A DNA stretch of 64,000 nucleotides from an uncultured Lachnospiraceae bacterium (GTDB lineage Bacteria; Bacillota; Clostridia; Lachnospirales; Lachnospiraceae), in assembly GCA_902775485.1 (NCBI GenBank), contig CACYMJ010000002.1, positions 48,031 to 112,030 of the forward strand, given 5' to 3'. Below, in pieces: positions 18,432 through 61,693 of the stretch. A program made the position numbers and the translations under genes. Below the pieces are notes generated by a model that searched no databases, had not been told where the DNA came from, and saw only the letters and a program-made list of their open reading frames with translations. Each line of letters opens with the position of its first letter. The stretch's first letter is position 1.

Positions 18432-18917
18432 TCACTGCCCGACATATCGTATCTCAAATACCGGCTTTTTCCCCGTCTCGGCATTTCCCACTATATAGGT
18501 CGGTACTCTTCCATGCTGTCTTGGGTAAGTAAGTGATCCCGGGTTTATAAGCGTAACCGGACCTTCCTCGTGGATCACGGGAACATGCGTATGTCCGAAG
18601 AAAACATAATCGGCCCGGTTTTCAGCCGCAAGATAAAACAGCGGATCATATCCGTGATAGAGCTGATAACGGTGACCGTGAGTAAGGACCGCTCTGTGAC
18701 CACTGAATTCTATGACCTTGATCCTCTCCATATCGGAGTCGTAATCATTGTTGCCTGCAACCACGTGCAGACTGCAGTCGATCCTGTCACGCAGGCGATC
18801 GTATTCCCCCTCGATATCACCGCAGTGTATCAGCATATCAAACGGTGACTCTTTTGCGATAACTTCGTACATTATATCATTGTAACCGTGTGTATCACTA
18901 ACTATCAGTATCTTCAT
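18432..18917 (-). CDS. yfcE: YfcE/MJ0936-family metallophosphoesterase
   Basis: MKILIVSDTHG…CGDIEG…GNNDY…GHTH motifs. Confidence 0.85.
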   Translation of the reverse strand: MKILIVSDTHGYNDIMYEVIAKESPFDMLIHCGDIEGEYDRLRDRIDCSLHVVAGNNDYDSDMERIKVIEFSGHRAVLTHGHRYQLYHGYDPLFYLAAENRADYVFFGHTHVPVIHEEGPVTLINPGSLTYPRQHGRVPTYIVGNAETGKKPVFEIRYVGQ

Positions 18918-18938
18918 CCGTTGTAATGTTTGATCCCC

Positions 18939-19544
18939 TTATTTCTTCCGGGTATAATCTTCACGCATGAGAATGTCTCTCATCATTCTCAGTGCCTTGC
19001 CCCTGTGGGATATCGCATTTTTTTCCTCTCGTGAGAGCTCCGCGGAAGTGCATCCTCTTTCCGGAAGGTAGAAGATAGGATCGTATCCGAATCCGTTCTC
19101 GCCCGCTATCTTATGCGCCACTATCCCCTCCATCGTTGCCCTTACCGTCTCGCTCGATCCATCCGGACGAACATAGCAGATCGCACAGACAAAACGCGCA
19201 GTACGTTTCTCATCCGGTACCGACTCCATGCGTCGCAGCAATTCAGCGTTTTTTACCGGATACGGGGTGTCCTCACCCATGTATCTTGAAGAATAGATTC
19301 CCGGCTCTTTCCCGAGATAATCTATCTCAAGGCCCGAATCATCCGCAAGAGTCGGCAGGCCGCTTTTTCTTGCTATAGCGCTTGCTTTCAGATACGCGTT
19401 TTCCTCGAACGTTTTTCCGGTCTCTTCCACATCAGTGTATACTCCGGCATCTTTCATGGATACGATCTCTATATCCATATCGGCCGTGATCTCACGTATC
19501 TCCCGGAGCTTATTCTCATTCCCGGTGGCAAATATTATCTTCAT
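18939..19544 (-). CDS. rdgB: XTP/dITP diphosphatase (RdgB/HAM1)
   Basis: MKIIFATGNENKLREI…DDSGLEIDYL…FGYDPIF. The ATG at 19544 has an aggag RBS. Confidence 0.9.
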   Translation of the reverse strand: MKIIFATGNENKLREIREITADMDIEIVSMKDAGVYTDVEETGKTFEENAYLKASAIARKSGLPTLADDSGLEIDYLGKEPGIYSSRYMGEDTPYPVKNAELLRRMESVPDEKRTARFVCAICYVRPDGSSETVRATMEGIVAHKIAGENGFGYDPIFYLPERGCTSAELSREEKNAISHRGKALRMMRDILMREDYTRKK

Positions 19545-50213: not shown

Positions 50214-51182
50214 CTACAATGGTTTAAACAATAAGACAAAAACGGCGCACACAATAAACTGGATCATCGCAAACCTGAACACCACCTGCGTATTGGACCA
50301 TTCATCGACCTTTCGTGCCTGATCATGCAGCGGACAACGTGTGTTTACAAGTATCTTTATCTTAAGGAAACGCAGAAGCGCCACTTTCAGCAGTCCCAGT
50401 CCGCCGTCAAGTATCATGACGATTGCAAACGGAACATACAAAAGAGGGTAACCGCTCATAAGCGCCATTATCGCGATCAGCATGCCCATGGCACGGCTTC
50501 CCGCATCTCCCATCAGCATACTGCTCGGATTAGCGTTATACCACAGATATGCCGCAAGCACAACGATAAAATAGATCACGTTTAAGAGCATATCCGAGAA
50601 TCCGCATATATCGATTATCAACGCAAAGCTGCCAAGCGTGATGATCGTAAGCGTCGCGGACAGACCGTCCACACCGTCGGTGCAGTTCGTCACGTTTATC
50701 GACATCCACACGAGCGCAACTATCAGTACCCCCGCAAGCCACATGGGGATCGTTATCTCCAGCTGCCACGGCATTTCCATTATCCTGAACGTATTACCGT
50801 TAAAGTACAGATACGTGACTGCCGTCACTATGCCGAGTCCGAGATCGAGTGCACCTTTAAGATATTCATTCCACGGTTTTTCGGATGCGTCATCGAAATA
50901 ACCGGTAAGCATGGTCGCGGTGATCACAAGAAGATAAATGATCTTCTCCACATAAATTCGGTCGAAAAGGATCGCGGCAGCAACATATACGAGCACAAAA
51001 ATGATGCCGGCACCCCTTGCCTTGCCTTTCGAGAGCGTGCCTTCAACGGCAAACGCCCTTCCCTGATCGTGCGGAAGCCGCCCCGACAGGGCCTTCATCA
51101 GAAAAAAAGTAGCAAAAAACGCAAACAAAACACCGGTGATCGGAATAAATGCCGCAAAAGGACCGGCTATATGATAGATCAT
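50214..51182 (-). CDS. MraY-like glycosyltransferase family 4 (polyprenyl-phosphate sugar-phosphate transferase) paralog
   Basis: GYFDD, NVTNCTDGVDGLS, LMGDAGSRA, CPLHDQ mirror the MraY motifs but diverge from the canonical sequence. Confidence 0.7.
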   Translation of the reverse strand: MIYHIAGPFAAFIPITGVLFAFFATFFLMKALSGRLPHDQGRAFAVEGTLSKGKARGAGIIFVLVYVAAAILFDRIYVEKIIYLLVITATMLTGYFDDASEKPWNEYLKGALDLGLGIVTAVTYLYFNGNTFRIMEMPWQLEITIPMWLAGVLIVALVWMSINVTNCTDGVDGLSATLTIITLGSFALIIDICGFSDMLLNVIYFIVVLAAYLWYNANPSSMLMGDAGSRAMGMLIAIMALMSGYPLLYVPFAIVMILDGGLGLLKVALLRFLKIKILVNTRCPLHDQARKVDEWSNTQVVFRFAMIQFIVCAVFVLLFKPL

Positions 51183-51221
51183 AAAACACCTCTTAATCGA
51201 TAATCTTTATTCAGGTTTACA

Positions 51222-51248
51222 AACCAAAAGCGTCGGAAACCGACGCTT
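51222..51248 (-). terminator. intrinsic terminator of hsp20
   Basis: On the minus strand: aagcgtcgg-ttt-ccgacgctt followed by ttggttt. Confidence 0.65.
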
Positions 51249-51322
51249 CTGATTATACCCTAATTGTTTCGAGTTGCAAATATGACTTATCCGCTTATCG
51301 CCATTTTCATATCAGCTTTTTA

Positions 51323-51760
51323 TCATCCCTCGATCGAGATATATTTTCTCTCTTCTACAGGCGGCTCAACCTCTTTCTTCGGAACGAATACCTTAAGTAT
51401 TCCGTCTTCGAATTTGGCCTTGATATCATTCTCTTCAATAGCCTCGCCAACATAGAAGCTTCTTGAGCAGCTGCCGAAGGTTCTCTCGCGGCGGATATAT
51501 GTTCCGTCCTCTGCCTTCTCTTCATGCTCTTCATCCGCTTTTGCGCTTACCGTTAAGTATCCTTCCTTAAGCTCTGCGGAAATGTTCTCTTTCTTGTACC
51601 CCGGAAGATCGATATCAAGCGTAAAGCCTTTATCGTTTTCCTTAACATCCGTTCTCATTACCTGAGGGACCGGAGTCTGTCTGATGGCCTTAATAGGTCT
51701 CGAGACGGTGTCAAAAAAGTCATCAAAAAGGTTTTCACCGAAAATACTGGGCATCAACAT
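51323..51760 (-). CDS. Hsp20/alpha-crystallin family small heat-shock protein
   Basis: MRTDVKENDKGFTLDIDLPGYKKENI…GILKVFVPK. Confidence 0.9.
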   Translation of the reverse strand: MLMPSIFGENLFDDFFDTVSRPIKAIRQTPVPQVMRTDVKENDKGFTLDIDLPGYKKENISAELKEGYLTVSAKADEEHEEKAEDGTYIRRERTFGSCSRSFYVGEAIEENDIKAKFEDGILKVFVPKKEVEPPVEERKYISIEG

Positions 51761-51832
51761 AAGTCATTCCTCCTTTATATCAGATCCGAAGATCTTTGTT
51801 TTTCAATTTCTGACTATGTTATACCACCATTG

Positions 51833-51859
51833 TTAGCACTCGTCAATCATGAGTGCTAA
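51833..51859. promoter_or_regulatory. CIRCE operator (HrcA binding site)
   Basis: TTAGCACTC-gtcaatcat-GAGTGCTAA is a perfect match to the consensus TTAGCACTC-N9-GAGTGCTAA, upstream of hsp20. Confidence 0.9.
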
Positions 51860-51885
51860 CAAAAATTGTGAAAATTTTGTGAACC
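51850..51885. repeat. 36-nt direct repeat, copy A (includes the right half of CIRCE)
   Basis: tgagtgctaacaaaaattgtgaaaattttgtgaacc; 34/36 identical to 60095-60130. Confidence 0.9.
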
Positions 51886-51951
51886 TTGATTTTAGCGGGT
51901 TCACAGCTTCGTATTTCTTGTGATCAAATCATTAATCATATAGCCATTTTC

Positions 51952-52938
51952 TTAACATCTGTACTTTTCAGCCATTCCTCGGATGTCCTCACATATCTGT
52001 TTCCTCAGTGATTCCGGCTTTAGCACTTCTACAGAAGGACCATATTGCAACGCCCAGTATTCCATGGCATGAATGTTACAACTCAAGCGTACCGTTATCT
52101 CATTTCCCTTTCCCTTTGTTACAGAAAAGTCCGTTCCAAACCAGTCAACTAGATCCGTCATCTTATCATCAGTAGTCTTGATTGTGATCATCTCACTTGG
52201 GCCTCTGAACATATAAATATGCTCAGCCATGTGTTTGGGCAGATCAAATCCCCTTTCATACCCAGAAATAAGCTTAAGCGGCTTTACTCTCTCATTAAGC
52301 ATTTCCACTTCCGTCATCCTGTCAATTCTAAGGTGTGCGATATTGTCATATTTCTCATAGTTTCCAATAAGATAAAATCGACCATTATTGGCAACAATCT
52401 CGTACGGATTAAAAACTGAAGGTTCCTTTTTCTTAGGATGAAGTTTAAAATCCGTCCCAACCTCGTTATACAGGAAACTGATCTTCTTTCGCTCAGAAAT
52501 GGCATCATTGATTGTATCAAGCGCATACATGGCCTGTTTGTTGATTGTACGATTCAAACTCGGGAGGTTCTTAATATGCGAAACCTTTGCAATAAAGAAA
52601 TCGCTGGCAAACTCTTTTAACTTTTCTATTAGTCCCTGTGCCTGCTTGGTCGAGATAGACTTGGAGAACAACACGCTGTCGATCAGAATTCTAAGTTCGG
52701 CATCATCAAACTCGCGGGTAATAAGATAATATCCCTTATCCATTGATATCTCATATCCCAGTTCCACAAGATGTTCAACATTATTCTTAACGGATCTCCT
52801 ATCACATTCCATCCCATAGTTCTGCTTAAGGAGCTTAATGATCTGCTGCTGTGTAAGCGGATGCTTTTCATCAGAGTATTTCCTTAAAACCTCCAGGATA
52901 AGCATATTAAGCATCTTCTTATTTCCGGTAGCGTACAT
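51952..52938 (-). CDS. WYL-domain transcriptional regulator (wHTH + WYL + C-terminal extension)
   Basis: N-terminal wHTH (LNMLILEVLRKYSDEKHPLTQQQI…). WYL core FNPYEIVANNGRFYLIGNYEKYDNIAHLRIDRM. Confidence 0.8.
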   Translation of the reverse strand: MYATGNKKMLNMLILEVLRKYSDEKHPLTQQQIIKLLKQNYGMECDRRSVKNNVEHLVELGYEISMDKGYYLITREFDDAELRILIDSVLFSKSISTKQAQGLIEKLKEFASDFFIAKVSHIKNLPSLNRTINKQAMYALDTINDAISERKKISFLYNEVGTDFKLHPKKKEPSVFNPYEIVANNGRFYLIGNYEKYDNIAHLRIDRMTEVEMLNERVKPLKLISGYERGFDLPKHMAEHIYMFRGPSEMITIKTTDDKMTDLVDWFGTDFSVTKGKGNEITVRLSCNIHAMEYWALQYGPSVEVLKPESLRKQICEDIRGMAEKYRC

Positions 52939-53027
52939 AGTAAATCCTCCCGCAGGTGATGTTCCAATGAATGCACATTATTTTGTACGTCTAAAGTATA
53001 CTAATGATCACATATGATTACAATAGC

Positions 53028-53480
53028 CTAGTCTGTGAACGGTTCTTCCTCCATAGTATTTGGAACCATAGCAAGGATTTCCTCGGGCAACATAGACTTC
53101 AGTTTCTTTTCTGCAATTCCACGGCAGTCACCAAACTGGATGATTAGTGCTCCCTTAAGGTAGATAAGATAGGTCAATCCTTCGTAAGAAGAGAACCCCT
53201 GTGAAAAAAACGATGACCATCCAATATCTTCGACATTTTCATGGTCAGTTCCGTCAAGGACCAGAATGATAAGTTCATATAACCACTTCTCCATTGAATA
53301 CTTATTCAAGTTCACTATTTCGTCTTCAAGTTTCAGAAGACCGTACTCCCTTGCTGCAATGGCGTATTTCATTACCAGTTCACATGCTCCTATAACCTTC
53401 CTCGCTTTTGCCCTGTCGAACTCGTCTGTAGCTATCTCGCCTATCACCCTTTTTAATTCATCGTAAAACAGTCTGTCCAT
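53028..53480 (-). CDS. soluble protein resembling the cytoplasmic domain of MotA stator proteins
   Basis: AAREYGLLKLEDEI…LYELIILVLDGTDHENVEDI parallels MotA ARREGLLALE…GIQLVVDGTDPE..R.ILE. No TM helices. The Met at 53480 has a strong aaggagg RBS. Confidence 0.4.
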   Translation of the reverse strand: MDRLFYDELKRVIGEIATDEFDRAKARKVIGACELVMKYAIAAREYGLLKLEDEIVNLNKYSMEKWLYELIILVLDGTDHENVEDIGWSSFFSQGFSSYEGLTYLIYLKGALIIQFGDCRGIAEKKLKSMLPEEILAMVPNTMEEEPFTD

Positions 53481-53732
53481 ATCTCTTCCTCCTTTCCGGT
53501 ATACCCGTTTCATGGCTTTTATGTGATCTAAATCTATCATGATACGCATCGCAAGAACGTCATTTTGCCGTCGCGGTCACGTGGGAATTATGTGCACTAT
53601 ATTGTACATTTATGTCGCACCTCGCGACACCAAATTGTCGTTTTGCAAAGTCTGAAGATGATACACTCTGCTCACAAGCTCGATCAATTAAATATGGAAC
53701 ATAACAATCACACTTAGAATGGAGGGTTGCAC

Positions 53733-53918
53733 ATGAATATCAGATTAACAGCAAGAGGAATGGCAATGGTGAAAAAAATGAACATGGCATCAGATACACT
53801 TACAGTACAAAGACCGGAATACAGGCAGTTCACCCTGATCAGAATCGACGGTAAAGGTAAGGCAATTTCGAAGAAAAAGGTTATGGTCAACATGAACAGA
53901 TACTTCAAAGTAGCTTGA
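53733..53918 (+). CDS. small basic Met/Lys-rich protein (61 aa)
   Basis: ggaggg RBS 6 nt upstream of the ATG. Immediately followed by a strong terminator. Confidence 0.4.
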   Translation: MNIRLTARGMAMVKKMNMASDTLTVQRPEYRQFTLIRIDGKGKAISKKKVMVNMNRYFKVA

Positions 53919-53919
53919 C

Positions 53920-53946
53920 GAGGGGAGAAAATCCCCTCCTCTTTTT
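53920..53946 (+). terminator. intrinsic terminator or attenuator between the small ORF and the AAA+ operon
   Basis: gagggg-agaaaat-cccctc followed by ctcttttt. Confidence 0.7.
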
Positions 53947-53978
53947 CCCAAAAGCTCACACTTCAAGGAGAATATATC

Positions 53979-54404
53979 ATGAATATCAGACAAATCAACG
54001 GAAAGCATATAAAAGAGATCCTCGATAAGATCGGTCCCAATGATGCAGTTATACGTACAAAAAATGAGTGGGCATTTTCCGTATACTATTCAGAGCGCAG
54101 TGTGAACACCATCACGATAGAGATGTGCCTCAATACCGATTATCAGGGGGATCCTCTCTTTGATCCTTTGATGAGGATAGAACTTGATCTGGATTCTAAC
54201 GGAAATATTACTGAAGCTAAACCGCTTTATTATCTGAGCAGGACTCTTTTCTATACTGAGGAAATCTATTCCGAGGGCAACCCGGCTTGCTATAACCCAA
54301 AGCTTTACAAAAGGTCCAACGAACTGGATTCCCGCCTTTCAGAATGGCTTGAAATGCTTTGGATACAGGGATATATGACCGAAGGCGTAGTCAGCCCGAT
54401 ATGA
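53979..54404 (+). CDS. hypothetical protein, DUF6908-like (family seen on Firmicute conjugative elements)
   Basis: Pattern …EMCLNTDYQGDPLFDPLMRIELD … LSEWLEMLWIQGY, recalled from DUF6908. From memory only. Confidence 0.4.
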   Translation: MNIRQINGKHIKEILDKIGPNDAVIRTKNEWAFSVYYSERSVNTITIEMCLNTDYQGDPLFDPLMRIELDLDSNGNITEAKPLYYLSRTLFYTEEIYSEGNPACYNPKLYKRSNELDSRLSEWLEMLWIQGYMTEGVVSPI

Positions 54405-54426
54405 TTATCAAATGGAGGAAGAAGAT

Positions 54427-56493
54427 ATGGTACTTTGGGAAACGCAGATAGTCTATAAAGACAAAAAAACCAAGAACATAGGCGCAAAACATCTTATGAT
54501 GGATCCTAATGCAAAACAACCGCAACAAGACTGGGACACCATGATCAGGGGGCTTAATAAGCTTTTGGGCAGGAAATGTGACCCGGATGATAAGATGTCT
54601 GTTTACTTCTATGATGGTGTCCCGGAATGCCTCAATGCTGTTATAGCTTATTCCTCAAGGGATGCATCCTTGGAGTACTGTTTTGATTTTATAAAGGAAA
54701 CGCTTGAAAAGAACTACTCGGTACGAAATATCTCCTTCTCCGAATATAAGGAAATATCTGCCAAAAGGCTTGATTTTCTCGGGGATAAGGCTGATGAAAA
54801 CGGTTATATCAGGCGTTGGCATTTTGAAAGGTCCAATCTTGGGATCGATTATTTCTCCAATAGCCACTTCAAAGTCGAGGAATACATGGAAGAAAAAGAC
54901 TATCCCACTCTGGAAGATGCCAAAAAAGCAGGTGACGACATAATGGCCGATGCGACTCTTATCGAAGAACTGGAGCGCATCTACTCCGACCAGAACGAGA
55001 AGAAATACTATGGAAATCCGGTTCATTACAAAATCTGTGCATCCGGCACAAAAGCCGCGATGGACATCGTGGATCTTATGGTTCCAGCGCTCATAGCCAA
55101 TAAAAGGCTTTGTGGAAGACGAATATTGAAGATCCACAATATCGGCGAAGGCTGTTATGACGAAGCGGATTTTGAGCATATGTTCAAATCTGCCCAGGGA
55201 AACACTGTCGTCATCGAGATGTGCGGAACTAACGAAGACCACGGAAACTATGCTAATGCCTATCAACAAGTTGTTGATTATATCGACTATATCATTGATA
55301 AATATCATTTGAACACATTATGTTTCTTTGTTGAGATAAAAGACAAATCTGGCTTTACAGACAGTCTAATTTCCAAGGTAACCGAAAATATCCAGATAAT
55401 CAAAATCAACGAGGGGTATGGAGATAAGAAGCAGGCGAAAACCTATCTTACGAATCTCGCGCAGAAGGAATCCTTTGATATTACCGAAGAAGAACTCGAA
55501 AAGGCCCTCGGAAACAAAAAGATGTTCAGCGTCGAGGAAATCTACCACATTTATGAGAAATGGTTCAAAGACGGGCTTCGCACTCACATTTACAAAGCCT
55601 ATAAAGATTACGGATTCTACTGCGAAGCGCTTAAGGATCGAAGCAGCGCCCCTTATGATGAACTTCAAAAGATGGTTGGTCTCACAGAGATCAAGCAGGT
55701 TATCGACGAGATCATCGACGCCGGAAAAGTACGTAAGATCCGGACCAACATGGGCTTAAACGCAAAAAAATCATCTCTACATATGGTCTTTACCGGCAAT
55801 CCAGGAAGCGCCAAAACGACTGTTGCAAGGCTCATTGCACAGATTCTCCGTAAAGAAGACATAGTCGATGGTGGTAAATTCGTGGAATGTGGTCGAGCCG
55901 ATCTGATCGCCAAGTATGTTGGATGGACAGCCAAAACCGTTCGTTCAAAATTCAGGGAGGCAAAAGGAGGCATCCTGTTTATTGACGAGGCTTATTCACT
56001 CGTTGATGGCAGCAACTCATTTGGCGATGAGGCCATCAATACCATAGTACAGGAAATGGAAAACCACAGAGAAGACGTGATCGTAATATTTGCCGGCTAT
56101 CCTGACAAGATGAAGGATTTCTTGGACAAAAACGAAGGATTGCGAAGCCGCATAGCTTTCCATCTTGATTTTCCTGACTACACTCCGGACGAAATGGTAG
56201 ATATCCTAAAGCTAATGGCTGATCAGCACGGATATAAACTTGAGAAAGCCGCATTTTCAAAGTGCCATGAAATCTTTGAGAGTGCCTGTCGGGAAGATGA
56301 CTTTGGAAATGGTCGTTTTGTCCGTAATCTACTTGAACAAGCTGAGCTGGCCCAGGCGCATCGGATCGCATCCAAAACACGAGGGAACAAGATAAGCAAG
56401 AAATCTCTGGTTACGCTCTCGCCCGAAGATTTTGACGTCAACATCAGCAAGAAGGTAAAAGCTGCTCGTATTCCAATAGGATTTGCTGTGTGA
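54427..56493 (+). CDS. two-domain AAA+ ATPase, SpoVK/CbbX type (degenerate N-terminal module plus active C-terminal module)
   Basis: C-terminal module: VFTGNPGSAKTTVA (Walker A), ILFIDEAYSL (Walker B), IFAGYPDKM, SRIAFHLDFPDYT, GNGRFVRN. The ggagga RBS favours the ATG at 54427. Confidence 0.8.
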   Translation: MVLWETQIVYKDKKTKNIGAKHLMMDPNAKQPQQDWDTMIRGLNKLLGRKCDPDDKMSVYFYDGVPECLNAVIAYSSRDASLEYCFDFIKETLEKNYSVRNISFSEYKEISAKRLDFLGDKADENGYIRRWHFERSNLGIDYFSNSHFKVEEYMEEKDYPTLEDAKKAGDDIMADATLIEELERIYSDQNEKKYYGNPVHYKICASGTKAAMDIVDLMVPALIANKRLCGRRILKIHNIGEGCYDEADFEHMFKSAQGNTVVIEMCGTNEDHGNYANAYQQVVDYIDYIIDKYHLNTLCFFVEIKDKSGFTDSLISKVTENIQIIKINEGYGDKKQAKTYLTNLAQKESFDITEEELEKALGNKKMFSVEEIYHIYEKWFKDGLRTHIYKAYKDYGFYCEALKDRSSAPYDELQKMVGLTEIKQVIDEIIDAGKVRKIRTNMGLNAKKSSLHMVFTGNPGSAKTTVARLIAQILRKEDIVDGGKFVECGRADLIAKYVGWTAKTVRSKFREAKGGILFIDEAYSLVDGSNSFGDEAINTIVQEMENHREDVIVIFAGYPDKMKDFLDKNEGLRSRIAFHLDFPDYTPDEMVDILKLMADQHGYKLEKAAFSKCHEIFESACREDDFGNGRFVRNLLEQAELAQAHRIASKTRGNKISKKSLVTLSPEDFDVNISKKVKAARIPIGFAV

Positions 56494-56505
56494 TAGTATA
56501 TTGTT

Positions 56506-57126
56506 ATGACTAAAATGGCGCGGCAATTAAACATATATGCTCAGGTAAGCGAAGTACCTGCCCTCGAAGAGATCTCTTTCGGCGTCATCATCGGTCCAAA
56601 AGAGATTATGAGGGAGTTTGGCATTTCCCAGCGTATGCTCCAGCGTGACCTTAGGGATCTTCGCGATTGCGGTCTGATCAACGTAAAGTATAACAAGGCA
56701 CGAGATATGTATATCCGTCTCGAGACCTCTGCCTTAGATGAGACTGCTGAAGGGCGTCACTTCCAGCACCTGCGGCGCCTTTATCGACTCGGAACACTGA
56801 TATCCAAGTTATCTCGCGTATATCAGAGTGAAATCGACCGCTATGAGTCTCTGGTCCAGGAACTGAACGACTACATCGAATTCTCACAAGAAGATCCCGA
56901 GACATTCCCCCTGGAGGATATAAACGAAATGCGTGAAAGCGCAGAATCCGAATATCCCTATTTCCCCAATCTTAAATCAGAATACTACACGCTCTTTCCA
57001 GACAGTAATGAAAGAACCCGGCAACGCGACTTCAAAGAACTCCGCGATGCCGGATTCGATATTGATTATAATAAGAAATATAAAGCTTATGTCTATTTGA
57101 TTAATGAAAGTTCTATGAGCCGTTAA
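56506..57126 (+). CDS. hypothetical protein with two DeoR/YafY-like wHTH-type segments
   Basis: ISQRMLQRDLRDLRDCGLINV and ERTRQRDFKELRDAGFDIDY both resemble the recognition helix and wing of YafY-type HTH_11. Confidence 0.4.
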   Translation: MTKMARQLNIYAQVSEVPALEEISFGVIIGPKEIMREFGISQRMLQRDLRDLRDCGLINVKYNKARDMYIRLETSALDETAEGRHFQHLRRLYRLGTLISKLSRVYQSEIDRYESLVQELNDYIEFSQEDPETFPLEDINEMRESAESEYPYFPNLKSEYYTLFPDSNERTRQRDFKELRDAGFDIDYNKKYKAYVYLINESSMSR

Positions 57127-58502
57127 CTTTTCAGTCTGATTCTCTGTTTTATCTCATCCTTGATCGGCAGATTCATAAACTCCTCTTTTTTCTCAGTATG
57201 CATCGGGTAAAGGGCATCCTGCGGATTGATTGCGTTTATTACACTTGCCAGCATTTTCGGTGTTGCATGACCGCTTGTATGCAAGTCATATTCGATCTCC
57301 ACTCCTTTTGCTTTCTGTCGTTCGACGAAATCAAACCACTCCTTTTTGAATGCTTTATGTTTGGGATTTAAGTACCCATTCCACATAGAGAATATTAAAA
57401 CTGGCATCTGTTTAATCCTATTAGCTTTATAGGCTTCAACAAATGCGTCAATGTAGTGTTCATGATAATCCTCAGGCTTTATCACGGCAATAAAACCATA
57501 ATCTTCCATCATCTCCTGCTGTGTTTTAGGATTATCCCAATTTGGATGTGAGTAAGTTTTGGTCGAATCTGCGTCGAACTGATATACATTATCAAACTTG
57601 TAAACAGATGCAAATGATCCGGCCGTGTCTGTGTAGAGTTTCAACTGTTTGATAAAATAGTAGCTATAGACATACATATTTCTGCCGTATGGATGACCAG
57701 CATCCTGAGCCGCCTGATAAAAGCTTGCGAGTGAATCAACATTTGTTGACGAGCATATAAGAAATGCATATTTATGTTTCATAAGATACTTTGTAGCCTT
57801 TAGCTGCATCTGAGGTTCTGAAATAACTCTCTCTCGTGAGCGACTCATCATTGTTCCTTCGATCACAAGCGCATCGATGCTTCGTTTATTGAACCTCCTA
57901 ATATACTTCTTGATCAAGGTCAGCATCACATTTCCGCGTCTTCCATGTCCACGGAAATCTCCCGTATGAACGACTTTGTATTTCCCGGATTTCGTATTGG
58001 GATCACAAACCTCAAAAAGAAACAGGTAAGCATCATAAGCAGAATGATCCACGCTATATGGTTCAACAACAAAGCCCTCTATATCTTTTACATGATCATA
58101 AAATATTCCATTCCAGTTAAACGTCTTTACCCTTTTATCATCATTTAGCACGGCCGCCTCCTCCAGGTGCAATTGTGCCTCTTCCTTAGGTATATACGGA
58201 TTCTTTCCCAAGGCTTCTTGGATGTTGATCATTGCCTGGCGAGCCACATCGCCCATGTATAATGGAATATGAGACGGGATTTCCATCAACCTTCCCACAT
58301 GATCGCCATGATAATGTGTAAAAAAGACCGCATCCACTGGTTCATCATCCCATGGGTAATCGAAGTCTTTTTCATTATCACTTCCGGGCAGGGATGACCC
58401 ATAATCAACCATGATCCGGTGTATCTCACCGTTAATCATGCTTGAAATAACCGTAACACATCCGCCTATTTGATTACCCTGATATATCTTTACATGTTCC
58501 AT
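57123..58502 (-). CDS. MBL-fold beta-CASP-like (RNase J/Cft2-type) nuclease
   Basis: FFTHYHGDHVG (HxHxDH), VVHTGDFRGHG, C-terminal LHTSGHAT…LYPMHTE. Confidence 0.75.
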   Translation of the reverse strand: MEHVKIYQGNQIGGCVTVISSMINGEIHRIMVDYGSSLPGSDNEKDFDYPWDDEPVDAVFFTHYHGDHVGRLMEIPSHIPLYMGDVARQAMINIQEALGKNPYIPKEEAQLHLEEAAVLNDDKRVKTFNWNGIFYDHVKDIEGFVVEPYSVDHSAYDAYLFLFEVCDPNTKSGKYKVVHTGDFRGHGRRGNVMLTLIKKYIRRFNKRSIDALVIEGTMMSRSRERVISEPQMQLKATKYLMKHKYAFLICSSTNVDSLASFYQAAQDAGHPYGRNMYVYSYYFIKQLKLYTDTAGSFASVYKFDNVYQFDADSTKTYSHPNWDNPKTQQEMMEDYGFIAVIKPEDYHEHYIDAFVEAYKANRIKQMPVLIFSMWNGYLNPKHKAFKKEWFDFVERQKAKGVEIEYDLHTSGHATPKMLASVINAINPQDALYPMHTEKKEEFMNLPIKDEIKQRIRLKS

Positions 58503-58525
58503 CGAACTTCCCCTATAGTTTTTTC

Positions 58526-59683
58526 CTATCGTAATATCTGTACGATATTATACGCACCTTCTTTTGTAGGGAAACCCGCCAACGTTTTGTCCCGCCACTT
58601 CTTTCCGTTTTCAGTTTCAATATACTCTCTTGCCGAATCAGTATAAACCAAGACTATCTCCTGGTTGCCGAATAATTCTAGTTTTGATAAATCAGCTTCG
58701 CACATATCCTTTGACACGCCCCTCAATCCCAACTTGTTGTATAAGGTAAGAATATCTTGCGCCTCTTTCAATCGCAATTTCATATAATCAAGATGCTTTG
58801 TAATGTATTTGTCCATATTGATCATATGCGCCCTCAAGCCGCTTCCATCTTCTTCGCTGTCCGTCATGGAATCTTTTATTGATTTAATTTCAACAAAGGC
58901 TAACTTTATAGGTTTTCCCTTATCATCATATCTAATGGCCAAACAATCAGTTTGATTGGCTTTGTTTATCCCCATATATCGAAAATCAGTTTTCTTCTCG
59001 GTATCATTTCCGTATTCATGTTGAAACTCCATATCATATACAAAATATCCGCCACAAAAGCTTCTATTATTCAGATAGTATTCCTGTTGTCTTTTCTTCT
59101 CAACTAAATTCCTTTTCCCTTCAATATATATCTTATGTATTCTGTCATAGGCTTTAATTGCTTTTCGGTTTTCGAAAAAATCCCATTTCTTATCAACATT
59201 AAAAAAATCGTTAATCATTCCAATCAGTTTGTGAATAGTTTTCTTGGCATAATCCTCAGGCAATTTATCAGCCGAACGAGAGAATTTGTCTATTTTTATG
59301 ACCTTTTTCTCTTCTTTCAATTTCTTTTCTCTTTCTTCCAACTTGTTTCTGTCCATTCCAATAGAGCTAAGAATGCCGATCCAATTATCAGAGTATCTTG
59401 CATGATTTGCGCTTATAGATACTTTGGGTCCCCTCTTATTTATACTCAAATCCCAAACAATATGATTATTATAATAAATCGTAACAGAATCTTGATTCGA
59501 TCTAAAACAAAGCATTAATTCAGGAATCGAATCATCACTTTCCGATTTCTTTACCAAATCAACAAACTGCTTAAACGCGCCCTCTGTCAAGTGGTAATAC
59601 ATGGATTTCTTATATTCTTCTCCTGTTTTTTGGGCATCACTTTCCGGATACCATATTGCACGATTATTTAATTCTCTTCCCAT
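58526..59683 (-). CDS. PD-(D/E)xK nuclease-like protein, Shedu/DUF4263-like core in the C-terminal half
   Basis: …NQTDCLAIRYDDKGKPIKLAFVEIKS… has the D…ExK arrangement. The N-terminal 200 aa carry no recognisable motif. Confidence 0.4.
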   Translation of the reverse strand: MGRELNNRAIWYPESDAQKTGEEYKKSMYYHLTEGAFKQFVDLVKKSESDDSIPELMLCFRSNQDSVTIYYNNHIVWDLSINKRGPKVSISANHARYSDNWIGILSSIGMDRNKLEEREKKLKEEKKVIKIDKFSRSADKLPEDYAKKTIHKLIGMINDFFNVDKKWDFFENRKAIKAYDRIHKIYIEGKRNLVEKKRQQEYYLNNRSFCGGYFVYDMEFQHEYGNDTEKKTDFRYMGINKANQTDCLAIRYDDKGKPIKLAFVEIKSIKDSMTDSEEDGSGLRAHMINMDKYITKHLDYMKLRLKEAQDILTLYNKLGLRGVSKDMCEADLSKLELFGNQEIVLVYTDSAREYIETENGKKWRDKTLAGFPTKEGAYNIVQILR

Positions 59684-59947
59684 AGCAACTTCTAAAGCCT
59701 CCTTTTACATAATCAAGTGAATTATCCTACTTATTCATAAAAAGATTCCGAGCACTTAATAAATTAGATATACACAGGTAAAAATCTTCTTTAAAGGCAA
59801 CCTTTTCAGAGTCTTAATATTTTAACATATTCTATCATTCCGTATATTTAGCTACAAGCACTACAGTATGGGCTTAAATGACCTTTTTTTGCGAATATAT
59901 AGTGTATTTTTCTGAGCAGTCACATTCCCTACCATTTGTGCGTACAT

Positions 59948-59969
59948 TTTTACCCCAGATTTTACCCCA
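59948..59969. repeat. tandem direct repeat ttttacccca (x2, 2-nt spacer)
   Basis: Read directly, about 125 nt inside repeat copy B. Confidence 0.8.
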
Positions 59970-60017
59970 AATTTTTAAATTTAGACAGCTTTTGACAACA
60001 ACAGTCAAAAAGCAAAA

Positions 60018-60054
60018 AACCCTGCGATGCCTTATTTTACAGCATCACAGGGTT
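60018..60054 (-). terminator. 13-bp hairpin with a U-run on the minus strand
   Basis: aaccctgcgatgc / gcatcacagggtt (one mismatch). On the minus strand it is followed by ttttttgc. Confidence 0.5.
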
Positions 60055-60094
60055 TGACAGCATCTGACAGGTTACACACTTTTATCCTCAAGCG

Positions 60095-60130
60095 TGAGTG
60101 CTAACAAAAATTGTGAAAACTTTATGAACC
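60095..60130. repeat. 36-nt direct repeat, copy B
   Basis: tgagtgctaacaaaaattgtgaaaactttatgaacc. Carries only the right CIRCE half-site. Confidence 0.9.
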
Positions 60131-60181
60131 CCGCATTTTCCCGGTATCCCGTCCATGTTTCACTACAAATGAACTGCGAAG

Positions 60182-61693
60182 TTACTGTTCTTCACCGATC
60201 AATCCGATAAACAACCCGGCATATGTCATCACGATAAGAGGAACGACCTGCAAAAGGACACGGTTTCCCGAGTCTCCCACATATGCCGTCAGGCTGTCAC
60301 CCCGTCCGTAGGATACTGCAAGAACCATCAATATAAAACCGACGGTAAGCGTGATATCAAATGAACAGCCGGCACCGGCCGTCTCTTTTTTCCTAATGTA
60401 CATAAGCACATACTCGATTACGAGCAGCACCGTCATTGCAATGACAAAATGCGGGAACACTCCCCATCCGCTCTGTCTGAACAGGTTCTGACCGAACATT
60501 GTAAGGTTCGTAACATACAGGTCGGGCTTTCTTATGAACATCAGTATATTCCCCGCCGCAAGTGCGATCAGATAAACATACGGCATATACCGCACAAATC
60601 TCTTTCTGACATACGGATATATAAACAGAAGATACAGGCCCGTTGCACAAATGGACGCAATCAGCAGAACCGCCTTCTGCGGTGTTAAGAATACATATAT
60701 GTTATCAAGCAGATAGAACTGTACGAACAGCCTGAAACAATATCCTCCGAACAGCAGCGCCATCGGTACCGAAACAAATATGGCAAGTTTGCGTGCAATA
60801 TCCCTGTAGACAGAGACGCACAGCATAAGCCACAGAACAAACAGCGTTCCCTCGATCCTAAGAAATGCCAAACCCAGAAGCAGTACCGGTCCGACTCCGA
60901 TCTTATCGTCCTGCGTGTCGATCAATGTATAGGCGGCTATAAAGAAAAGCTCCATAAAATACATATTTGCAAGCGCCCAATGCCCGAGTATGACAAACGG
61001 AGTCGAGATAACCAAAACCGCCGTAACAACAACCGATGCAATGACCGCATGTTTTCCACACAGCCGCAGTTTTGCTCTTTCATATACACAGGACGCAAAA
61101 AACGCTATAAAACTGATATGGAAGCTTTCCCTTAAACCGAACGTCTCACCGAATCCGAAAAGAGCCGGCAGCGTATCAATGCATACCGATCCAAGCCCGG
61201 TGTCGGTCATGAACACGTCAAACTGATCGCGAAGATATCCGAAATGCACGATCGCGTCAGGATATCTGCTGAAATAATACATCGTATCATTGGATATCGA
61301 AACCGGTATAATACCCGATGTTGCAAGTGCCGCTGCGACAAGTACGACCACAAATGCGATCAGCATATTCCGTACAGCTTCAGGTGCGCCATGAGATCTT
61401 CTCATCACGGCAAGAGCCGCAAGCGCTTCGGCCGCGATAAAGAGCACAACCGTCCACGTATTGTACGGTATACCGGTAACAAGCATAGCATACGCCGTTA
61501 CGGAAAAAGCGCATACGCCTACAGGAAGCGCCAGAGCACATCTTTTCACGCACGAGAGGCTCTTCTTTGAAACAGTATCAGTCAATATCGCTCCGAAAAC
61601 AAAAAGTGCGATTATCACCAGATACTGCTTCAGGAAATACACTCCCCGCAGACGGGCCAGATATTCGGTTATAAGCATCTCAAGCCCGTTCAT
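60182..61693 (-). CDS. polytopic membrane protein (function unknown)
   Basis: 503 aa, 12 or more hydrophobic helices. Start overlaps the upstream stop. Confidence 0.6.
   Translation of the reverse strand: MNGLEMLITEYLARLRGVYFLKQYLVIIALFVFGAILTDTVSKKSLSCVKRCALALPVGVCAFSVTAYAMLVTGIPYNTWTVVLFIAAEALAALAVMRRSHGAPEAVRNMLIAFVVVLVAAALATSGIIPVSISNDTMYYFSRYPDAIVHFGYLRDQFDVFMTDTGLGSVCIDTLPALFGFGETFGLRESFHISFIAFFASCVYERAKLRLCGKHAVIASVVVTAVLVISTPFVILGHWALANMYFMELFFIAAYTLIDTQDDKIGVGPVLLLGLAFLRIEGTLFVLWLMLCVSVYRDIARKLAIFVSVPMALLFGGYCFRLFVQFYLLDNIYVFLTPQKAVLLIASICATGLYLLFIYPYVRKRFVRYMPYVYLIALAAGNILMFIRKPDLYVTNLTMFGQNLFRQSGWGVFPHFVIAMTVLLVIEYVLMYIRKKETAGAGCSFDITLTVGFILMVLAVSYGRGDSLTAYVGDSGNRVLLQVVPLIVMTYAGLFIGLIGEEQ

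Follow-up and report, generated by a model that had tools for sequence, protein, structure and literature searches.

The 64,000-nucleotide (nt) stretch analysed here, referred to throughout as the window, derives from an uncultured Lachnospiraceae bacterium, probably of the rumen, and contains, immediately upstream of the heat-shock gene hsp20, an island without an integrase gene. We conclude, with considerable confidence, that this island is the remnant of a decayed integrative element resembling the cis-mobilizable elements (CIMEs), inserted by a tyrosine integrase into a conserved promoter block of hsp20 that includes the operator CIRCE (controlling inverted repeat of chaperone expression). 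By analogy, the element appears to be of a known kind, a decayed CIME-type element with the target-restoring logic of the islands in tRNA genes and dusA; what is new here is that it targets the conserved hsp20 promoter/CIRCE block and that the same ends are used again with different cargo. On this reading, a heat-shock promoter and operator block joins tRNA and coding genes on the list of targets of integrative elements, and the element rebuilds the regulatory sequence that its own insertion interrupted.

The structural comparison covers three occupied sites in three species, namely the window's own and those in L045 and L049 (compared loci are numbered L0xx and compared proteins P0xxx). The block-bearing loci with an organism name are Lachnospiraceae metagenome-assembled genomes (MAGs), mostly from ruminant gut, and all empty sites come from species other than that of the window.

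The promoter block, its truncated copy and the empty site

The target and the two junctions are defined by the following features.

51323–51760, minus strand: hsp20 (145 amino acids, aa), the host gene whose promoter is the target (Pfam HSP20, E = 9e-20)
51818–51846, minus strand: hsp20 core promoter, TTGACG (51841–51846)-N17-TGgTATAAC (-10 at 51818–51823), overlapping CIRCE, from reading of the sequence
51833–51859, no strand: perfect CIRCE, TTAGCACTC-N9-GAGTGCTAA, from sequence reading and pattern search
51840–51900, no strand: copy A, the hsp20-side junction, comprising the full promoter block and the start of the element arm, with a 36-nt core at 51850–51885 and a likely crossover zone at 51875–51885 (repeat search and comparison with L045)
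60085–60145, no strand: copy B, the junction on the mem503 side, a truncated block that ends inside the CIRCE spacer/-35 (CTTGAG|GATAA, hsp20 sense), with its core at 60095–60130 and a likely crossover zone at 60120–60131 (repeat search and junction comparison)
60182–61693, minus strand: mem503, a host membrane protein gene and ancestral upstream neighbour of hsp20 (directly before hsp20 in L010 and L015)

The 8,199 bp between the two copies have a GC content of 40.4%, against 47.2% in the left and 46.3% in the right flank, in agreement with an earlier sequence-only reading that had described an AT-rich island between GC-richer flanks. That reading had also placed a perfect CIRCE upstream of hsp20, which sequence reading and computation both recover and which is the sole CIRCE-like site in the window with up to three mismatches allowed. 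It fits the CIRCE/HrcA operator pattern, so far as sequence can tell, overlapping TTGACG-N17-TATAAC 5' of hsp20 and being kept in relatives. On the hsp20 strand, the whole block reads GTTCACA-N4-TTTCACAATTTTTG-TTAGCACTC-AnnnTTGAC-GAGTGCTAA-CAAnnGTGGTATAAC, that is, a CIRCE-overlapping TTGACG-N17-TGgTATAAC promoter with two TTCACA repeats in front. The block is conserved 5' of hsp20 in about 17 related loci, across genera, and the Hsp20 proteins of some block-bearing loci are merely 42–65% identical to that of the window; the segment TTGACGAGTGCTAACAAnnGTGGTATAAC is likewise kept 5' of hsp20 in about 17 related loci. A consensus promoter scan missed the hsp20 promoter because its -10 ends in C, and nothing in Rfam matched in 51000–61000. 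The direct repeat GTTCACA-N4/5-TTCACAATTTTTG, which abuts CIRCE upstream (51860–51885 in the window) and is kept in the hsp20 5' regions of L009, L010, L013, L015 and L021–L030, might bind a second regulator or act as an UP-like element.

The similarity between 51850–51885 and 60095–60130 is 34/36, as the sequence-only reading had reported, and copy B indeed has no other CIRCE arm. The 6/8 match claimed for the adjoining 8 nt to the left is in fact 5/8, or 7/10 with the next two bases. In a repeat search, the pair lengthens to 61 nt with 80% identity (49/61; 51840–51900 against 60085–60145), and a perfect 25-nt stretch is common to both copies. Copy B lies 51 nt past the mem503 stop codon, where the native block would be expected. 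The two copies differ at 6 of 47 positions (41/47 identical), and blocks from other species match A or B at 41–44 of 47 positions (3–6 differences). Much of the 34/36 identity thus appears to reflect conservation of a Lachnospiraceae promoter block, and the existence of a second, truncated block would be the informative fact. A fresh target-site duplication can be rejected, since six differences in 47 positions are at the between-species level and a length of 47–61 nt is far too long. Conservation alone is likewise rejected as the whole explanation, given that the truncated extra copy is confined to loci with an insertion.

With mem503 as query, species-representative genomes yielded 12 Lachnospiraceae MAGs, mostly from ruminant gut. 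In L010 and L015, mem503 is followed by hsp20-GT4-cobW-cobW, an order from hsp20 onwards that is kept in relatives, with 147–200 nt between mem503 and hsp20 and a single block; in other relatives, 0.8–2.2 kb of unrelated DNA separates the two genes, again with one block. Altogether, the block is single in all of the 12 or more related hsp20 loci. Joining the flanks of the window at the likely crossover yields an intergenic region of 176 nt, within the range of the relatives. Empty sites with one repeat copy, which the sequence-only reading had predicted, are thus present in L010 and L015, and the observation that would have spoken against it, island-free relatives with both copies, was not made: none of the loci that lack an insertion has the truncated copy.

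The occupied sites of other species point the same way. A homologue of the island protein u385 (P0121, 88% identical) led to L045, where the cargo from u385 through WYL328 recurs, with three unknown ORFs (open reading frames), a Phd/ParE pair, a 61-aa ORF and then hsp20 behind it. Positions 60133–51924 of the window align with L045 9552–17749 at 95.6% nt identity over 8.2 kb (blastn), compared with merely 75.7% for the hsp20 flank (51924–51498 against L045 20705–21156); the other flank of L045 is unrelated to the window and contains no mem503. Given this difference between near-identical elements and divergent or unrelated flanks, we conclude that the element was horizontally transferred to the same target. 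An integrase stub, P0133, led to L049. In this locus, a mem503 homologue and another gene come first, and the truncated block, the terminator and the first TGGGGTAAAA pair lead to three Zn-ribbon/YARHG genes. These are followed by a stub of some 70 aa, the other TGGGGTAAAA pair and the GCTGTGAACCC arm, which adjoins the full block in front of hsp20. The three Zn-ribbon/YARHG genes, unrelated to the cargo of the window, thus lie between the same element ends. All three truncated copies break at CTTGAG|GATAA and have G where host blocks always have C (TTGAC). The TGGGGTAAAA pairs, both arms and the CTTGAG|GATAA junction are confined to the window, L045 and L049, with a variant form in L050, and are absent from the empty sites and the other variable loci compared. 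The empty sites, together with the two loci that share the ends, support the proposal of the sequence-only reading that insertion into the hsp20 promoter/CIRCE region was site-specific and that the repeat is an attachment (att)-type junction pair. The hsp20 site is accordingly a variable hotspot in mostly ruminant-gut Lachnospiraceae, with different cargo between the same ends. An apparent fourth truncated block, an exact 23-nt match to the block core at about 3007–3029 in L018/L019, was dismissed as chance; these contigs have no credible ORFs, carry CA-type simple repeats and look non-bacterial.

As the window and L045 have a near-identical element in different hosts, every part of the two copies can be attributed to either the element or the host. 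In copy B, element-level identity begins at TTTTCACAA and continues into the island; in copy A, it extends from the arm to GGTTCACAAAA, with host-level identity beyond. From this identity switch we infer strand exchange near the first TTCACA repeat (51875–51885 / 60120–60131), the zone in which the two mismatches of the 36-nt repeat fall. Such a crossover implies that attP mimicked about 45 nt of the block, and the reconstructed attP junction would consist of the arm, the block mimic and GATAAAAG...

Element ends and the missing integrase

The element ends and the site of a later deletion are as follows.

51886–51923, no strand: residual 38 nt of the integrase-side (P) arm (in L045, this arm, GCTGTGAACCCGCTAAAATCAAGG, lies before the full block, as does a variant in L049; absent from empty sites)
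51923–51924, no strand: deletion scar (blastn; position 51924 maps to both L045 17749 and L045 20705)
59697–60084, minus strand: far (P') arm, 33% GC, with a TGGGGTAAAA pair, a small hairpin (59983–60010) and candidate promoters of the u385 operon (homologous to the left end of L045, same layout in L049)
60005–60055, minus strand: intrinsic terminator, a 15-bp stem followed by UUUUUUGCUUUUU (fold of -24.4 kcal/mol; same position in L045 and L049)

The tandem repeat noted near copy B by the sequence-only reading is the TGGGGTAAAA pair at 59948–59957 and 59960–59969 (minus strand, 2 nt apart). These are two matches against 0.10 expected, a number reached in 0 of 100 shuffles. L045 and L049 have such pairs on both arms, one of them directly after the integrase remnant; the window keeps the far-arm pair only. 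The pairs are putative integrase arm-type sites. That reading had also likened two hairpins to recombinase arm-site architecture. Both hairpins are real (60017–60055, -24.4 kcal/mol, z = -5.7; 59983–60010, -8.4 kcal/mol, z = -3.1), and the TGGGGTAAAA pair may well be an arm-type site, but the large hairpin belongs to a minus-strand intrinsic terminator rather than an arm site. This terminator is predicted to insulate the element from read-through from mem503 and copy B. Promoter-like sites in the P' arm are no more frequent than expected by chance. In L045, an internal second copy of the far arm (18851–18982, 80% identical) comprises the terminator and a TGGGGTAAAA pair, with no promoter block before it, and possibly marks where two elements had accreted in tandem.

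At the other end, the residual P arm and the first half-site of the block form the inverted repeat GTGAACC (51879–51885) / GGTTCAC (51898–51904). The 12-nt spacer between these half-sites is inverted in L049 (10228–10254) relative to the window (51879–51904) and L045: CTTGATTTTAGTG against CGCTAAAATCAAG.

With regard to the features typical of a tyrosine-recombinase element, att-type direct repeats are present at both junctions and a single-copy unoccupied target exists in relatives. Both core copies of attL and attR persist in the window, with 38 nt of the integrase-side arm left and its repeat pair deleted. The integrase gene expected beside att is absent from the window; a C-terminal PF00589 stub occupies that place in L045 and L049. 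Pfam searches of all long island ORFs were negative for recombinases and transposases, in line with the sequence-only reading (the 61-aa island ORF u61 was scanned against PHROGs alone), tblastn with the integrase fragments and four intact integrases of the lineage found no match in the whole window, and the longer contig shows no recombinase for about 15 kb to either side. Eight ORFs fill the island so densely, with only two gaps of about 0.4 kb each, that there is no room for a hidden recombinase gene. A recombinase disguised among the unannotated ORFs is also rejected: the model of u385 (pLDDT 85) has no recombinase-like or other significant match in the Protein Data Bank (PDB), and the integrase tblastn was negative.

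The integrase-less state, which the sequence-only reading had treated as a puzzle, is explained by the sister copies. The window lacks 2,955 bp that are kept in L045 (17750–20704), with 1 nt of microhomology at the scar, and it has no integrase stub because this deletion removed the region. With this segment went the three unknown ORFs and the Phd/ParE pair, a broken stretch in which every forward frame is interrupted by stop codons, the integrase stub together with the TGGGGTAAAA pair on its side, and the WYL328 terminator AGAATCCTTCGGGATTCTTCTTTTT, which also occurs in L032 and L033. The 61-aa ORF of L045 ends ...MAESGMDPKVLQYIMGHADFSVTMNVYNH... and matches the last 30 or so positions of the Pfam PF00589 model; the stubs of L045 and L049 both exceed the Pfam threshold for PF00589, matching model positions 126–169 of 172 only. 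By its sequence, the L045 ORF is identified as a C-terminal tyrosine integrase stub in the usual position beside att. The last 60–70 codons are what survives of the integrase at the hsp20 sites of the sister copies, and these stubs are the recombinase pseudogene that the sequence-only reading had said would make this an ordinary decayed element. Integrase-less islands can arise by stepwise deletion, and the steps are visible in the window, L045 and L049. A split integrase of the SSV type, with attP inside the gene, is rejected, as the stub is oriented towards the core, its end lies about 110 nt (L045) or about 125 nt (L049) upstream of CIRCE, and the opposite end of the element has no N-terminal half.

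A word-indexed search with the stub retrieved 15 proteins, all of them stubs of 47–104 aa. In one protein, P0132 (97 aa), the first 44 or so residues of the ParE toxin are fused to the integrase stub, from which it follows that deletions recur in this part of the element family. An exhaustive search found intact integrases of 400–425 aa with 55–61% identity in the region of the stub. Among them, P0166 shares 38% identity along its whole length with the integrase of pCF10 and similar Enterococcus plasmids, an enzyme that we take to be a Tn916-family Int; a scan of viral contigs with P0166 retrieved distant relatives only (23–27% identity). Int enzymes of the Tn916 family are heterobivalent and bind arm repeats. 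In L050 (14–1600), a complete, different tyrosine integrase of 330 aa precedes a stub of 57 aa from the hsp20-type integrase. Further on, an inverted half-CIRCE has arm-like repeat pairs (TGGCGTAAAA/TGGTGTAAAC and TGGTGTAAA x3) to either side, an attP-like layout; the contig starts at the integrase.

At 51924–51951, next to the scar, the window thus lacks the terminator of WYL328, and no terminator was predicted between WYL328 and hsp20 (51700–52000). Read-through from WYL328 into hsp20 is therefore possible, and the loss makes it possible to test how an element alters transcription into a stress gene.

Mode of integration and alternative origins

We propose that an integrase of the Tn916-Int-like lineage, of about 400–425 aa, inserted the element site-specifically into the hsp20 block. 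Its attP would have mimicked about 45 nt of the upstream two-thirds of the block, comprising the TTCACA repeats, the distal CIRCE arm and the greater part of the spacer. An exchange close to the first of the TTCACA repeats would then have placed a complete promoter and operator before hsp20 (copy A), with a truncated copy that does not function left at the opposite end (copy B). The integrase would use the paired TGGGGTAAAA sequences as arm-type sites, and the terminator at the end would shield the element from transcription that enters from outside. Once the element was integrated, its recombination module would have decayed, to the point where sister copies keep the last 60–70 integrase codons, and in the window a further 2,955-bp deletion would have taken the stub, the adjacent arm repeats, the Phd/ParE pair and the WYL terminator. 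The island is now probably an immobile, CIME-like fossil. Control of hsp20 has probably been preserved, the full promoter and operator being intact at all three occupied sites.

CIMEs are elements without integration and transfer genes that have kept attL and attR (PMC5704250). Like those related to ICESt1 and ICESt3 in Streptococcus thermophilus, the island has att-type direct repeats, contains no integrase or transfer genes and derives from deletion, and the internal second arm copy of L045 is as expected after tandem accretion. Unlike them, it occupies an intergenic promoter/operator rather than the 3' end of a gene, and the window's copy, having lost one putative set of arm sites, may not be mobilizable even in cis. 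No partner integrative and conjugative element (ICE) or integrative and mobilizable element (IME) of the island was found. Genomic islands in the 3' ends of tRNA genes or the 5' end of dusA carry a replacement for the displaced segment (PMC4482086). The hsp20 element would share with these an attP that mimics a widely conserved target, a functional unit rebuilt at one junction and a truncated copy at the other, but the unit it rebuilds is cis-regulatory (TTCACA repeats and the distal CIRCE arm upstream of -35) rather than coding or tRNA sequence. No report of the hsp20 promoter/CIRCE block as an integration target was found in the literature searched.

Tyrosine integrases of the Tn916 family bind both arm-type and core-type sites. 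The resemblance of the hsp20 element to this family lies in the closest intact relatives of the stub, which are 400–425 aa long and include the one 38% identical to the pCF10 integrase, and in the paired direct repeats on both element arms. It differs in that only the last 60–70 residues remain at hsp20 sites and that there is one defined target, compared with the loose preference of Tn916.

Several points weigh against an origin by integrase-mediated insertion followed by decay. The identity of the repeats is by itself weak evidence of a duplication made by insertion, the block being under strong selection, and the TGGGGTAAAA repeats could alternatively be operators for a regulator encoded by the element. 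An attP or circular junction was not found, and scans of viral contigs with the core, an arm repeat, the junction and the cargo ATPase returned nothing. No empty allele from the same species was found, the empty sites being cross-species only, and an intact integrase of the exact lineage was not seen beside the hsp20 block, the word-indexed search having yielded stubs only. Contigs of MAGs could in principle be chimeric, though three independent assemblies agree on the structure of the window.

A different view of the same ends is that the island is a still-mobile, non-autonomous element, a working CIME or satellite that is integrase-less by nature and is excised and integrated in trans. All 15 close relatives of the stub are indeed short fragments, L049 has the same arms as the window and L045 with different cargo, the 95.6% identity of the latter two in different species indicates recent transfer, and intact integrases of the broader lineage exist. 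Yet the window has lost a TGGGGTAAAA pair and most of the integrase-side arm, which makes excision of this copy unlikely; the stubs differ in length and one is fused to ParE, which looks like erosion and not like a stable design; and a helper integrase is neither present within about 15 kb on either side nor detectable in the window. We consider such a working element quite unlikely. An extension of the idea, in which elements targeting hsp20/CIRCE form a family of interchangeable cassettes with identical arms and stubs, moved in trans by an unlinked Tn916-like integrase, with an att core that overlaps the HrcA operator so that HrcA occupancy (heat or proteotoxic stress) gates integration and excision, is speculative and, in our estimate, improbable. 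Entry without any site-specific recombinase, by RecA-dependent (Campbell-type) or homology-facilitated illegitimate recombination of foreign DNA carrying the block, would accord with the perfect 25-nt stretch common to the copies and with the conservation of the block across genera, which makes any DNA that carries it homologous to the target. That three insertions in three species share the breakpoint nucleotide, CTTGAG|GATAA, renders this very improbable: a fixed truncation point is not expected from homology, 25 nt is marginal for RecA, and the common arms, the paired repeats on both arms and the integrase remnant in the canonical position beside att would have no place in it.

The sequence-only reading had further suggested that copy B faces and might drive the nuclease pair, which would make it a functional regulatory duplicate that places the operon of u385 and the metallo-beta-lactamase (MBL)-fold gene under heat-shock control. 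Copy B does lie 412 nt upstream of u385 in the same orientation. It has, however, no second CIRCE arm, no complete -35 and no -10, and the -24.4 kcal/mol terminator stands between it and the operon; it is therefore very unlikely to drive or regulate these genes. The same truncated copy precedes unrelated cargo in L049, and we regard a role as a functional regulatory duplicate as hardly credible. A DDE transposon or insertion sequence is rejected: there is no transposase, the island ends carry no terminal inverted repeats, and a diverged repeat of 47–61 nt is unlike a target-site duplication.

Cargo genes and their other settings

The favoured reading, a decayed integrative element, leaves the eight island genes as its cargo.

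51952–52938, minus strand: WYL328, transcription regulator with helix-turn-helix (HTH), WYL and WCX domains (Pfam WYL 5e-12, WCX 7e-7; PADLOC WYL 2e-29; 100% identical in L045)
53028–53549, minus strand: u173, unknown protein (no family match; conserved in L032, L033 and L045; called as 150 aa in some contigs)
53733–53918, plus strand: u61, small conserved ORF (called in L001, L032, L033 and L045; no PHROG match)
53979–54404, plus strand: u141, unknown protein (no family match; 95–99% identical in L032, L033 and L045)
54412–56493, plus strand: AAA693, AAA+ ATPase of CbbX/SpoVK/EccA type with an N-terminal region of about 400 aa without assigned function (Pfam AAA and AAA_lid_6; PDB CbbX 3e-53)
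56506–57126, plus strand: HTH206, HTH_11/ArsR-like DNA-binding protein (Pfam HTH_5 and HTH_11, both 3e-5)
57123–58502, minus strand: MBL459, metallo-beta-lactamase-fold hydrolase, weakly beta-CASP/RNase J-like (Pfam Lactamase_B 9e-8, RMMBL 3e-3)
58526–59683, minus strand: u385, unknown protein with a possible PD-(D/E)xK-type motif (D246, E265 and K267 invariant; no family match; alignment invariants)

By their predicted domains, these genes form a WYL-regulated cluster of AAA+ ATPase, MBL hydrolase and nuclease-like proteins that is also present on other mobile elements. AAA693 matches the NCBIfam model spore_V_K at 1e-81, below the cut-off of that model. MBL459 has 1,687 homologues at E <= 1e-10, of which the few with names are from Lachnospiraceae, and no match in the phage collection. 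The sole pointer to a possibly nuclease-like u385 is the invariant D246...E265-x-K267 motif; its AF2 model (pLDDT 85, pTM 0.86) has no significant match among PDB structures. Only 7 homologues of u385 were found among 5.8 billion proteins.

PADLOC returned no system match for the cargo, only the WYL accessory models and weak IetA-like matches to the ATPase domain, and nothing for MBL459, u385, u141 and u173. The cluster resembles WYL-regulated defence islands (with BrxR/CapW-type regulators) in having an HTH-WYL-WCX regulator beside ATPase and hydrolase/nuclease-like genes on a mobile element, and departs from them in that MBL459 and u385 fit no PADLOC system model and the AAA+ protein has weak IetA-like matches, so that a defence function is a guess. 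A role in defence or DNA processing is plausible from the domain content. The cluster is widespread on Lachnospiraceae mobile DNA and appears to be a reasonable candidate for a new system of either type.

In L032 and L033, the part from WYL to HTH is kept at 83–98% protein identity; the MBL/u385 pair is much more diverged there and in another order. The cargo module also adjoins a rumA-like methyltransferase gene, the att site of a separate serine-recombinase/MobA element, and is found beside a DnaB-like gene, inside large PolC/DnaA/DnaB/tubulin elements and in plain chromosomal settings. L033 and L034 are identical downstream of 9402 and unrelated upstream, with the break in the HVETCVLL codons at the 3' end of the methyltransferase gene. 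Upstream of 9402, one contig has the rumA-like tRNA U5-methyltransferase gene, and the other has genes for a 646-aa large serine recombinase, MobA/L and ORF6N (L034 3225–9707). This looks like a separate mobilizable element with its att beside the same cargo module. The serine recombinase of L034 was rejected as mobiliser of the hsp20 island, as it belongs to that separate element, which uses the 3' end of the rumA-like methyltransferase gene.

Distant cargo genes (the MBL hydrolase and, in some loci, also WYL and the AAA+ ATPase) occur in large replicons or elements in L037–L040, L043 and L044, with FtsZ/tubulin-like, XRE/ImmA, metallophosphoesterase, PolC, DnaA-like and DnaB genes as neighbours. 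Among these, the megaplasmids of Lachnospira eligens (627 kb; L044) and Selenomonas (pSRC1; L043) carry relatives of the AAA+ ATPase close to WYL genes.

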